DNA from: a virus
UHGV virus genome: UHGV-0129090
DNA: 34,582 bases
Direction: 5' to 3' (one strand)
Shown: in pieces, positions 720 to 2,839 of the stretch
How the letters are laid out: each line of letters starts with the position of its first letter
How positions within the stretch are numbered: position 1 is the stretch's first letter
Notes under the pieces: model-generated
Told to the model about the DNA's origin: nothing
Seen by the model: the letters and a program-made list of their open reading frames with translations, nothing else
Databases searched by the model: none
Program-made: the position numbers and the translations under genes

Positions 720-1013
720 CTAAATGCCACCAATCAAGACCATTAAGATCCTGAAAATTGGTTCTAATGGTAACTGTATTAGTGCGATCCCTAACCAGTC
801 GGCAAAAGGGATAATTATATAAGAATATAAAATAATTAGCGTTAAAACCATCCCCAGCACATTACGCCAATGAATACTATTTCTCTCTACTTCTATTTTG
901 TTTAGTTCTATTTGTCCATCTTCTTTTTTTACTTCTACTTCATGCTCTACTATCTTCGTTTTAGTAAAATAACCTACGGCGACCTTTACTAATTCTACTA
1001 TGACATTAATCAT
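720..1013 (-). CDS. Hypothetical small membrane protein (two predicted C-terminal transmembrane segments); last gene of att-proximal operon
   Basis: ORF with hydrophobic stretches VLGMVLTLIILYSYIIIPF and FRILMVLIGGI; start overlaps stop of upstream ORF. Confidence 0.4.
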   Translation of the reverse strand: MINVIVELVKVAVGYFTKTKIVEHEVEVKKEDGQIELNKIEVERNSIHWRNVLGMVLTLIILYSYIIIPFADWLGIALIQLPLEPIFRILMVLIGGI

Positions 1014-1330
1014 TTTTTTACTCCTATTACGTATTGGAAGAATTTTCTACCCTTTACACTTAGGAAGTGAGAGCCTAATAGAACTACTTCAAATGGAACA
1101 CCCTTATAAGTCCATGTAAGAGTATCGCCATCTTTCCATTGATCTTGTTTATAGCAAAATACTACATTCATATAAGACAATATATCCGGTGCAAAGGCTT
1201 TTATATTCTTTTTTATTTTTTTATTATCTAGCTGAAAAAGTTCGAACTGGTAGGAGTTACCAAAAGGGGTAACTCCATCAAGTGTAATTTCTGATACTTC
1301 TTCGCCATAGTGATGATCTTCTAAATTCAT
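1010..1330 (-). CDS. Hypothetical protein
   Basis: ORF translationally coupled to flanking minus-strand ORFs; no recognisable motif. Confidence 0.4.
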   Translation of the reverse strand: MNLEDHHYGEEVSEITLDGVTPFGNSYQFELFQLDNKKIKKNIKAFAPDILSYMNVVFCYKQDQWKDGDTLTWTYKGVPFEVVLLGSHFLSVKGRKFFQYVIGVKK

Positions 1331-1333
1331 TTA

Positions 1334-1912
1334 TTATCCCCTCTTTAGTTTAAAGTGTCCTTTGATGCCGCTAACGATAACTGCTACTCCCTTTTCTGCT
1401 TCTGCGTAGAAGTCGTAGATTAGTTTTCGCTTCTTCGTTTCACGTACACCAATAACACGCTTTGTTTTCGTCTTTGTATCTTTCTTTGTAGTATCGATTA
1501 GATATTTTTTACCATTCTCAACTACTACGCGATATTTACCCTTCTCTATATTACTTTTAAGCTGGGGTATGTTCCCCTGTTTTGTTAGACGTGCTGCGGA
1601 GGTTGGAATAAATTTCTTTAGTGGATCTGGATGTACTATTACATCGTAAAGGTATCTAGCTTGAATATCTTTAATCATGATAGTACAGCTTACACTAGTA
1701 CCGGACTTGTTATAAAAGTACAGTACAGCGTTCTTTGTAAAAGGTACAGGACCACGATCAATTGCAGCACTCATATCATCACGCATCTTTTTAGATAGTT
1801 GGCGTGTTTGCTTGATTAGCTCGTCCTGTAGTTGATTACCATAGAGTTTTCCTTGTTGATTTAGATAGCCATTTACTGACTTTAGACCCGTGACGGTTGC
1901 ATTAATTTTCAT
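1334..1912 (-). CDS. Hypothetical lysine-rich protein
   Basis: 192-aa ORF with basic Lys-rich C-terminal third; 4-nt overlap with upstream ORF. Confidence 0.45.
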
Positions 1913-2346
1913 GTTAGAGATCCTATTAGTCCTTTTACTATTTTAAATAATCGTAATCCATCGGCATCATTTGCGGGTAGTTTGGCTTTTACTAGAATCG
2001 CTTTGTTAAGGTTATCCGGTAATAGTCCACAAGTAGCGATTAAGGCAGTCTCTACTACTGCCGCCTGATTAGCAGTTGGGAAGCACCACAAAATATACTT
2101 TTTATATGTTTCGCCTGCTTCAATACGGGCATTTACTGTTTTACTACTGGAAGTGTAATCTACCCAATTTGATTGTTTTGTACTGGTCTTTAGTTTTTTA
2201 ACGTCTTTTACACCTTTGTAAATTTGTTTAAGTCCCACATACCAGCCGCCATTATCAAACTGAATAAGATATACAAATGCGGCATAATTACCTGAATCTA
2301 TATCTTTAATATCCCATGTTTCGGGATCGTACATTTCCCACATCAT
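1909..2346 (-). CDS. Hypothetical protein, first gene of att-proximal operon (ORF track gives 1909-2397; internal Met start MMWEMYD more plausible)
   Basis: Track ORF starts with a hydrophobic IIIVII leader and overlaps the lysozyme start; weak GIY-YIG-like pattern ([16 protein letters not shown]) that I could not confirm. Confidence 0.4.
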
Positions 2347-2386
2347 ATAAATACCCTTAATTATTACTATTATTATAAGGTTATTT

Positions 2387-2839
2387 ATGAATATCAAAGA
2401 AAGATTAATACAGTACGAAGGAAGTAAAGAATATCAACGAGTACGCGGATACTACCGACAAGATAAATTTTACCCATATGTGGATACCGAAGGGTACGGC
2501 ACAATCGGTTATGGACATAAAATCCTAGATAGTGAAATTGAGAAGTACAAAAACGGTATCAGTGCTATCGACGCAGATTTACTACTGGCTTGGGATATTG
2601 ACCGTACTGTAAAGGATGTTAAAACATTAGGCTTGGACTTGCCGCAAGATTGGCAAGATTTCTTAGTCATCATGACCTTTCAGTTAGGTTTAGGTGGAGT
2701 TAAGAAGTTTAGGAAGATGTTAGCGGCATTAGACCGCAAAGACTGGAAAGAAGCAATTAGACAAGCAAAGGATAGCCTCTGGCATCGCCAGACACCTAAC
2801 CGCCTTGATGATATGGTTAAACAATTAGTAAACAAGTAA
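2387..2839 (+). CDS. Endolysin, T4-lysozyme-like (glycoside hydrolase family 24)
   Basis: MNI...E...[12 protein letters not shown] motif near N-terminus and FQLGxxG...W...SxW..QTPNR toward C-terminus, matching phage T4 lysozyme; followed by a strong terminator. Confidence 0.9.

Follow-up and report, generated by a model that had tools for sequence, protein, structure and literature searches.

Four minus-strand genes near the left end of a 34,582-nucleotide stretch of UHGV virus genome UHGV-0129090 (hereafter the window), and at the left end of an E. coli prophage, are probably (with a probability of roughly 0.7) conserved genes at the distal end of the late gene string, which covers morphogenesis and lysis, in an uncharacterised lineage of Enterobacterales siphoviral prophages, and not a cargo island. 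In this reading the genes fall into two functional pairs, one encoding a 192-aa candidate tail completion protein together with a 106-aa protein, and the other encoding a GIY-YIG protein together with a 97-aa candidate holin. Along with a flipped GH24 lysozyme gene and the gene of a DUF2730-like membrane protein, they form the distal late/lysis cassette of the prophage.

The significance of these findings lies in annotation, as three proteins that are hypothetical in RefSeq receive tentative readings as a tail completion protein, its partner and a holin, and a claim of cargo or defence is removed from the block. In addition, the locus presents a phrog_1924 branch of tail-completion-like proteins whose genes habitually stand apart from the head-tail connector block, a GIY-YIG gene that encodes a nuclease domain only and is retained under constraint inside a lysis cluster, an endolysin gene whose orientation changed within one phage lineage, and a cassette with no recognisable spanin. 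None of these points bears on a long-standing open question.

Organization of the gene block

The four ORFs occupy positions 2346..1909, 1912..1334, 1330..1010 and 1013..720 of the minus strand, essentially as the original prediction had described them. The first gene (1909..2346), which encodes a SegE-type GIY-YIG nuclease-domain protein, gives 145 aa from its first ATG instead of the 146 aa proposed earlier; the mechanical ORF from the TTG at 2397 has 162 aa, and RefSeq calls the gene at 438 nt in a 98% identical copy (NZ_CM151386). Its stop codon overlaps the start of the second gene in the sequence ATGA (1912-1909), and a second ATGA overlap joins the third and fourth genes (1013-1010). 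Both overlaps had been noted in the original prediction; the gap between the 192-aa and 106-aa genes, previously given as 4 nt at 1330, measures 3 nt (1331-1333). A divergent region of 40 bp (2347-2386), reaching to the lysozyme ATG at 2387, was found as predicted, and the att-proximal location of the block also held, with homology to yegD stopping at about 672-676, 44-48 bp from the stop codon of the last gene.

Beyond the divergent region, the 150-aa GH24 (T4-type) lysozyme (PF00959, 3.4e-10) is encoded on the plus strand at 2387..2839, flipped relative to the operon. It is separated by a G+C-rich hairpin (2845..2871), which has a terminator-like score on both strands and is followed by a T-run on the plus strand, from the minus-strand gene of an 88-aa protein (2867..3133).

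Conservation and synteny among related prophages

The block was compared with 14 related Enterobacterales loci, comprising 12 species-level genomes and contigs of Pantoea and Salmonella. Homologues of all four genes were present in 12 of the 14 loci, at identities down to about 40%, and the order of DUF2730-like gene, lysozyme, GIY, 19x-aa, 10x-aa and 9x-aa genes, followed by the prophage end, was kept in 11; one locus (L015) is an IS-disrupted remnant. For three of the four genes, dN/dS against a 75-79% identical relative was about 0.07-0.13, values that are approximate as dS is saturated. The four ORFs are real genes and not chance ORFs, each having homologues in related prophages. In Leclercia, the genes for the proteins of 194 aa and 107/109 aa lie directly 3' of the tail-tip gene J, with a shared stop/start, while the GIY gene and a gene for an 85-92-aa membrane protein, which aligns with the holin family, remain beside the lysozyme. 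This split of the gene pairs indicates that the block consists of two pairs.

The original prediction had interpreted the block as candidate accessory cargo for defence or exclusion. Cargo genes are typically variable between relatives. Here, the genes were conserved and syntenic within the late operon of relatives at 40-79% identity, mostly in the same order by the endolysin, and the genes past the last, holin-like gene differed from locus to locus or were absent. The lysozyme homologue is inverted in nine related loci and co-directional in four, and in those four the lysozyme and all the rest of the string run in one direction, overlapping the late genes. Moreover, a PADLOC search returned nothing relevant to defence for the four proteins, the GIY protein matching only a generic homing-endonuclease model (3.8e-6) and the other three giving nothing significant. 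It had also been stated that no structural or lysis role could be recognised; profile and structure comparisons tentatively placed two of the four proteins in known tail or lysis families, namely the 192-aa protein in the tail-completion-protein superfamily and the 97-aa protein among the PF11351 holins. The att-proximal position, the nuclease domain within the block, and the presence of an upstream terminator-like hairpin and of a sigma-70-like site (10/12) just 5' of the first gene, which could create an independent transcription unit where the lysozyme is flipped, would fit superinfection-exclusion or defence cargo with its own promoter active in the lysogen; but the promoter match occurs at chance density and is not conserved, and with the synteny, the PADLOC result and the two family assignments this makes such a reading extremely improbable. 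A tblastn search of 50,697 phage records with the 192-, 106- and 97-aa proteins, and a nucleotide search of phages, gave no match.

A candidate tail completion protein and the connector region

The protein encoded at 1334..1912 on the minus strand is Lys-rich, as had been noted, with 39 K+R against 16 D+E and a net charge of about +23, which would suit contact with DNA. Its predicted model begins with a long N-terminal helix, continues through a beta-hairpin, a short helix and a beta-rich insert, and ends in a C-terminal helix, and its best structural match was 80alpha gp51. This model parallels the published descriptions of gp51 and of lambda gpZ, which has an additional beta domain (PMC11661146). 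The same order of secondary structures, including the gpZ-like beta-rich insert, is shared with the tail completion proteins (lambda gpZ, HK97 gp10, SPP1 gp16.1 and 80alpha gp51; PF06763 / PF04883; PHROG 'tail completion or Neck1'), and the protein equals lambda gpZ in length (192 aa).

The link to tail proteins emerged only when the full library was searched by profile and the distant matches were then scanned in turn. Among the distant relatives, 11 of 42 matched phrog_27 and 5 of 42 matched PF06763 (tail-completion/Neck1 and gpZ profiles), a link to the 192-aa family that is transitive only. The family aligned with these relatives in hhalign with 99.8% probability over 177 columns, and the relatives aligned collinearly with lambda gpZ at 67% probability; in direct profile comparison, however, the 192-aa family and lambda gpZ did not match significantly (E 0.07, 24 columns). 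Neither the 192-aa protein itself nor its close family gave a consistent profile match, the PHROG scans of 52 close members yielding inconsistent singletons, and a PDB sequence search with the profiles of the GIY, 192-aa and 106-aa families returned nothing significant.

Full-length homology, together with the common motifs IDRPTPFT, IQAxYL and RLNKYGNI, connects the 192-aa protein to the phrog_1924 'minor tail protein' group, which includes Dinoroseobacter phage R4C gp49, Rhodobacter phage RcRhea gp45, Citrobacter phiNP_029 and Serratia BZS1 p72. The original prediction had emphasized that the block lies outside the morphogenesis module. This is correct as to position, since the 192-aa gene follows the tail-tip and lysozyme genes instead of lying between the head-closure and the tail-terminator/tube genes, as would be usual for a tail completion protein; but the phrog_1924 genes too were away from the connector genes in every phage examined, for example between Rz and terS or immediately before terS. 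Those genes, just 5' of terS or at the genome end, lack a beta-barrel neighbour, whereas the 192-aa family is always paired with a beta-barrel protein of 103-118 aa, a feature that, like its strong Lys-richness, also distinguishes it from the known tail completion proteins. The R4C structure paper does not mention gp49, and no proteomic or structural record of virion membership was found for any phrog_1924 member.

The connector region provides a further argument. In the window, where the tape-measure protein is encoded at 9347..11545, only two genes separate the capsid gene from those of the tail tube, both on the minus strand: one for a lambda FII-like protein (16919..17239; PF05354 Phage_attach, 9e-7; phrog_82 Hc1) and one for a protein of 130-149 aa (16525..16974) without a family match, the 149-aa form of which gave no match in any search, including tblastn against the 50,697 phage records. 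Lambda has three genes (FII, Z and U) at this position. The slot between the FII-like and tube genes is occupied by a single gene, against two (Z and U) in lambda, which leaves a vacancy for a tail completion protein.

Taken together, the profile links and the predicted model tentatively identify the 192-aa protein as a candidate tail completion protein, which would be located in the virion and on which the joining of head to tail and the exit of DNA would depend. The fold might alternatively serve within the cell instead of the virion, during lysis or packaging, with the 192-aa and 106-aa proteins acting, for example, as a cationic disruptor of the outer membrane in place of the missing spanin, or as factors associated with DNA ends or terminase. 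Such a role would agree with the very cationic, Lys-rich composition, with the failure to find a spanin candidate, with the place of the pair within the lysis cluster of most relatives and of the phrog_1924 relatives next to terS, and with the fact that the 106-aa fold is nearest to PilZ-type barrels and not to any specific phage protein. It is nonetheless unlikely, as the Leclercia pair is coupled to the tail-tip gene apart from the lysis genes, no secretion signal was found in either protein, both the fold and the profile evidence lead to tail completion/Neck1 families, and the connector region has room for such a protein.

The 106-aa beta-barrel protein

The 106-aa protein (1010..1330, minus strand) is invariably encoded directly 3' of the 192-aa gene. 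Its predicted structure is a confident small beta-barrel, PilZ-like or stopper-like, and residues M54, N55, F58, W73, K93 and G94 are invariant in the family. The best fold matches were PilZ domains and not phage proteins. A function as c-di-GMP receptor, which these matches could imply, was ruled out by the absence of the RxxxR and (D/N)xSxxG motifs, which sets the family apart from PilZ domains. The family likewise differs from the phage stopper/adaptor beta-barrels (lambda FII, SPP1 gp16) in that profile comparisons with lambda FII and with U yielded nothing; moreover, the FII-like gene at 16919..17239 already stands elsewhere in the window. As the obligate neighbour of the candidate tail completion protein, the 106-aa protein is probably its partner or assembly factor, and the two proteins may interact.

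The GIY-YIG protein

The 145-aa protein matched Pfam PF19835 SegE_GIY-YIG (2e-16, 60.8 bits against a cut-off of 25) and the homing endonuclease family phrog_7363 (2e-14), and shared 35% identity with the first 122 residues of a T-even homing endonuclease 324 aa long. Across 14 relatives F24, Y26, Y36, G38, E99 and N114 were invariant and position 47 was K or R; the catalytic-type positions (two Tyr, a basic residue, Glu and Asn) were assigned by pattern. The nuclease domain of the SegE-type T-even enzymes is retained with its GIY, YIG, Glu and Asn positions, but the protein is half their size and lacks the DNA-binding half, that is, the C-terminal 200 residues of the T-even homologue. Also unlike these enzymes, the gene is fixed, syntenic and translationally coupled in a late operon, and was found in all 13 related loci that keep the region rather than sporadically as a mobile homing endonuclease would be.

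It could be argued that the gene is a decayed selfish homing endonuclease, fixed by hitch-hiking after loss of its DNA-binding half and useless to the phage, with the lysozyme flip as collateral damage of its activity. Free-standing T-even homing endonucleases are indeed its nearest characterised relatives, the C-terminal 200 residues are gone, the adjoining gene switched orientation among relatives, and the GIY gene is frameshifted in a decaying copy in E. coli PSJ-12, as is the holin gene there. This explanation appears rather doubtful in view of the presence of the gene in 13 of 13 region-keeping loci, its coupling to the gene that follows, which persists in the rearranged Leclercia loci, the invariance of the catalytic-type residues and a dN/dS of about 0.07, a constraint that is unexpected for a dead gene. 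We favour the view that the protein descends from a SegE-type homing endonuclease, has long been resident, keeps only the nuclease domain and may still be an active nuclease.

The candidate holin and the lysis cassette

The original prediction had suggested, as a second possibility, that the missing holin could be the membrane protein at the end of the block, and this proposal gained support. By itself, the 97-aa protein (720..1013, minus strand) matched PF11351 (GTA_holin_3TM) weakly, at 0.069 (14.1 bits, under the Pfam gathering score of 24.8), and the holin family phrog_3427 at 1e-3. Within its family of 14, however, 13 members matched PF11351 (E<1, best 1.6e-5) and ten matched phrog_3427 (best 1.3e-5). 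PF11351 includes the holins of RcGTA and of Vibrio phage ICP1, and the ICP1 holin, TeaA, has been studied experimentally (bioRxiv 10.1101/790493). The profile match is collinear over the C-terminal membrane region, and the small size and the position in an endolysin cluster are further common traits; every relative that has kept the gene carries it in the lysozyme cluster, and in Leclercia it is coupled to the GIY gene next to the lysozyme. The two C-terminal transmembrane segments described earlier appear in the hydropathy profile as a pair of hydrophobic stretches within residues 50 to 97, approximately. The protein differs from PF11351 holins in having two clear hydrophobic segments instead of three, and in the three genes that lie between it and the endolysin. 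These data support the 97-aa protein as a candidate holin, distantly related to the PF11351 (GTA/ICP1 TeaA-type) proteins.

The lysozyme has no hydrophobic window and no N-terminal membrane segment, and a holin is needed because the enzyme carries neither a signal nor a SAR segment; the 97-aa protein would thus open the inner membrane for the soluble lysozyme encoded nearby. A further lysis function may be added by the 88-aa protein, which has an N-terminal membrane anchor by hydropathy and a coiled coil, and resembles DUF2730 weakly (PF10805, 0.0033, under its cut-off). Its gene is the conserved upstream neighbour of the lysozyme, and its homologues are weakly DUF2730-like in Pantoea, while one in E. 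coli PSJ-12 carries the RefSeq name 'DUF2730 family protein'. The N-terminal anchor with a cytoplasmic helical domain and the adjoining endolysin gene recall the Mu gp25 releasin (DUF2730), but the resemblance is weak and this phage is not Mu-like; with an endolysin that lacks a SAR domain, the releasin mechanism as described would not apply. It is probably a further lysis factor of some kind. A scan of all frames of 600..4500 for lipobox ORFs found no spanin, and the lysis cassette as described is therefore incomplete.

The divergent region and lysozyme orientation

The divergent region (2347..2397) contains a sigma-70-like match on the minus strand (TTGATA-17-AATAAT, 2397..2369, 10/12) and a 13-nt palindrome (2347-2359 / 2376-2388) that mirrors both ribosome-binding regions. 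Promoter-like sites in the region were fewer than in shuffled sequence. In the sub-lineage with the flipped lysozyme, to which the window belongs, a new promoter in this palindromic region, together with the 2845-2871 hairpin, could uncouple the four genes from late transcription. The nuclease-domain protein, the tail-completion-like protein, as a binder of DNA ends, and its barrel partner would then be produced in the lysogen, where they could exclude incoming phage DNA or assist lysis independently of a spanin. We regard this as very unlikely; if true, it would represent a structural gene in the course of recruitment to another function.

Inverted repeats were considered as the mechanism of the lysozyme flip and rejected, as only short, weak repeats flank the gene. 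The sigma-70-like match is not conserved in all relatives, nor even in all of those with the flipped lysozyme, whereas the palindrome (AAATACC...GGTATTT) recurs in the latter.

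The four genes and their setting

The window carries a prophage of approximately 33 kb (~38% G+C) integrated within E. coli yegD, the N-terminal half of which occupies 2..676 while the C-terminal half extends to 34532. The integrase, a large serine recombinase (32206..33804, minus strand) with Resolvase, Recombinase and Zn_ribbon_recom domains, lies at the prophage end opposite the four genes, and the junctions of the split yegD fall near 673-676 and near 33850. Nearly all genes are carried on the minus strand, in the order terminase, portal, capsid, FII-like protein (16919..17239), 149-aa protein (16525..16974), tube proteins, chaperones, tape measure, distal tail and tail tip J. 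These are followed by small post-J genes, an 88-aa anchored coiled-coil protein (2867..3133), a lysozyme on the opposite strand (2387..2839) and then the four genes, the last of which stops 44-48 bp short of the yegD junction.

The four ORFs (2346..1909, 1912..1334, 1330..1010 and 1013..720) are, as judged from sequence comparison, real genes. Each has homologues, and for the first three the dN/dS ratios against Pseudocitrobacter (75-79% identity) were 0.07-0.13, which are rough values given that dS was saturated. The ATGA overlaps at 1912-1909 and 1013-1010 and the 40-bp divergent region between the first gene and the lysozyme gene agreed with the original prediction, as did the Lys-rich character of the 192-aa protein (K+R = 39) and the two C-terminal hydrophobic segments of the 97-aa protein. 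Two sizes needed correction: the first product has 145 aa from the first ATG (2346) rather than 146 aa, and the short gap at 1331-1333 is real but of 3 nt rather than 4 nt.

Conservation of the block among related prophages

The block is best read as a set of conserved late genes of an uncharacterised phage lineage; the functions proposed below are predictions from folds, profiles and synteny. The family of the 192-aa protein comprised 125 members, all from Enterobacterales and none annotated. Genomic context was compared in 14 loci (Pantoea and Salmonella contigs and 12 species-level genomes), and the following string recurred: J, post-J genes, DUF2730-like anchor, lysozyme, GIY-YIG, 19x aa, 10x aa, 9x aa, prophage end. 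Homologues of all four genes were detected in 12 of the loci, with the recurrent order kept in 11. Identities ranged from ~80% to ~40% among relatives for the GIY-YIG and 192-aa genes and were lower for the 106- and 97-aa genes. The variation among relatives sits beyond the last gene, where the window and Salmonella have no further gene and the other loci have one to three unrelated ones. The block had been predicted to be accessory cargo for defence or exclusion. This reading is unsupported: the chief result against it is the conservation of content and order across the related prophages, and a PADLOC scan of the block gave no defence match, the sole match being a generic homing-endonuclease model. 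In one related locus (L015, 4820..6552), the homologue of the 192-aa gene is truncated at its 5' end and directly preceded by IS3-like transposase ORFs; the tail and lysis genes that would lie upstream are gone.

A 98% identical copy of the prophage was present in 2 of 5,426 complete E. coli genomes, and diverged relatives in about 18 further genomes of this set. No close sequenced phage relative was found, the top capsid match showing 31% identity. One diverged relative (L024; E. coli PSJ-12, NZ_AP027622.1 59849-67265; ~66% nucleotide identity) also lies at this yegD site, its genes being arranged in the same order. This copy is in decay: frameshifts divide both the GIY-like gene and the holin-like gene into two ORFs each, and a stop codon interrupts the tail-tip gene.

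A candidate tail completion protein and its probable partner

The 192-aa protein matched no curated family. Its AlphaFold model, built from 52 sequences, was moderately confident (pLDDT 71.5, pTM 0.56) and predicted an N-terminal helix of 40 residues followed by a beta-hairpin, a short helix, a beta-rich region and, at the C-terminus, a further helix. 80alpha gp51, the best structural match of the model, has the same succession. Its structure paper assigns it the role of tail completion protein, the counterpart of lambda gpZ, SPP1 gp16.1 and HK97 gp10, places one copy within the neck in contact with the tape-measure protein and with the end of the DNA, and notes an additional beta domain in lambda gpZ (PMC11661146). 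Foldseek searches of the model against viral models gave weak matches to 'tail component', 'Type I neck protein', 'neck protein' and 'minor tail protein'. Evidence independent of the structural match came from a search of the family profile against 1.84 billion representatives, which gave 83 proteins, many of them collinear and of 180-226 aa. When 42 distant proteins from this search were scanned against PHROG and Pfam, 36 matched phrog_1924 'minor tail protein' (best 4e-48), 11 matched phrog_27 'tail completion or Neck1 protein' (best 1.7e-9) and 5 matched Pfam Minor_tail_Z (best 1.5e-4). The alignment of the close family matched that of the distant set with 99.8% probability over 177 columns, and the distant set aligned collinearly with lambda gpZ at 67% probability; the close family alone gave no significant alignment with gpZ.

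In lambda, FII, Z and U sit between the capsid and tube genes, whereas the window has only the FII-like gene and one unassigned gene there. One connector role is thus unfilled at the usual position, since the prophage has two genes against lambda's three; judged from position only, the unassigned 149-aa gene would encode the terminator. The phrog_1924 branch in known phages likewise has its gene off the connector block: in Citrobacter phiNP and Serratia BZS1 it falls between Rz and terS, and in R4C and RcRhea (Cronusvirus) it ends the genome. No direct evidence was found for a virion location of any member of the branch.

The 106-aa protein is fast-evolving, a single-sequence search giving 5 relatives and a profile built from neighbouring genes giving 45. 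Its confident model (pLDDT 88.9, pTM 0.82) predicted a small beta-barrel with two short helices. A c-di-GMP-binding PilZ protein was considered because PilZ domains are its best fold matches, and was rejected, as the PilZ c-di-GMP motifs are absent; profile comparisons with lambda FII and U showed no similarity either. Because the 192-aa and 106-aa genes are never apart, its most economical reading is as a putative partner of the 192-aa protein, or an assembly factor for it. Together, folds, profiles and synteny are best read as indicating a putative tail-completion-type late protein of 192 aa with a predicted 106-aa partner.

The GIY-YIG protein and the predicted lysis genes

The 145-aa protein matched Pfam SegE_GIY-YIG far over the cut-off. 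It corresponds to residues 1-122 of the 324-aa T-even homing endonucleases (35% identity) but, unlike these, lacks the DNA-binding half. The GIY and YIG tyrosines, K/R at position 47, E99 and N114 were conserved in all 14 sequences. The gene is present in 13 of 13 related loci retaining the region, is coupled to the next gene in every case and has a dN/dS of ~0.07, which indicate a long-resident gene under constraint rather than a recent mobile insertion.

The 97-aa protein alone matched holin profiles weakly. Among its family members from related loci, 13 of 14 matched PF11351 GTA_holin_3TM (best 1.6e-5), a family that contains the ICP1 holin TeaA (bioRxiv 10.1101/790493), and 10 of 14 matched the holin family phrog_3427 (best 1.3e-5). 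The adjoining lysozyme is a soluble GH24 enzyme without a membrane segment, so that a holin is needed. These results support the aside in the original prediction that the terminal membrane protein could be the holin, and the 97-aa protein is best read as a predicted holin, its gene paired with that of the resident nuclease-domain protein beside the endolysin gene. The 88-aa protein upstream of the lysozyme has an N-terminal anchor, a coiled coil and a weak resemblance to DUF2730, the prototype of which is the Mu releasin; according to the releasin paper, DUF2730 proteins without a known role occur next to endolysins that are not of the SAR type. A search of all frames of 600..4500 revealed neither ORFs with a lipoprotein signal nor o-spanin or u-spanin candidates, and the lysis cassette appears to be without an outer-membrane component.

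In two Leclercia genomes, genes for 194-aa and 107/109-aa proteins lie directly after J, with J ending and the 194-aa gene beginning at a common position, and the anchor protein, lysozyme, GIY gene and an 85-92-aa membrane protein follow, the last two genes being joined by an ATGA overlap. This membrane protein was undetected by tblastn with the 97-aa protein as query, but is nonetheless alignable with the holin family. The arrangement implies that the 192/106 pair moves with the tail genes and the GIY/holin pair with the lysozyme.

Transcription and lysozyme orientation

Among the related loci compared (L002, L004-L014 and L016), 4 have a co-directional endolysin ORF and 9, like the window, have this ORF alone inverted. 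In the four co-directional cases it overlaps its neighbours, so the entire string reads as a single late operon. Only weak inverted repeats flank the flipped gene, which is followed in the window by a hairpin at 2845-2871 that is terminator-like on both strands. A 13-nt palindrome (ATAAATACCCTTA / TAAGGTTATTTAT) at 2347..2388, in the 40-bp divergent region, forms mirror-image ribosome-binding regions for the divergent genes; the motif AAATACC...GGTATTT recurs in relatives with a flipped lysozyme, and the palindrome could be a regulator site. A sigma-70-like site (2397..2369, 10/12) was found; such sites were not enriched over shuffles and this one was not conserved in all relatives. Since the four genes possibly form a separate transcription unit, a small probability is kept for a block recruited for exclusion or exapted.

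Other features of the prophage

Over its first ~144 residues, a 1233-aa protein (12810..16511, minus strand) matches phrog_158 (major tail protein), a profile also matched by the adjacent 152-aa tube protein (12293..12751, minus strand). The remainder of the 1233-aa protein matches tail-fibre families; it looks like a tube-protein/fibre fusion beside a plain tube protein. In the 620-aa 'capsid' protein (17253..19115, minus strand), the HK97-type capsid profile covers residues 357-617 only, and residues 20-177 share ~46% identity with the N-terminal portion of major head proteins from other phages; the N-terminal extension possibly represents a scaffold or protease domain fused to the capsid protein. 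Two conserved post-J genes (3201..3848 and 3858..4154, minus strand), one matching DUF8377 / phrog_4524 and the other phrog_7961, encode proteins that both begin MxxGxQCxNxxG and match phrog_4062 and phrog_2427, an N-terminal similarity common to the pair. They are replaced by a DUF6453 protein in Pantoea and missing from Leclercia, and their products are probably host-range or fibre-associated.
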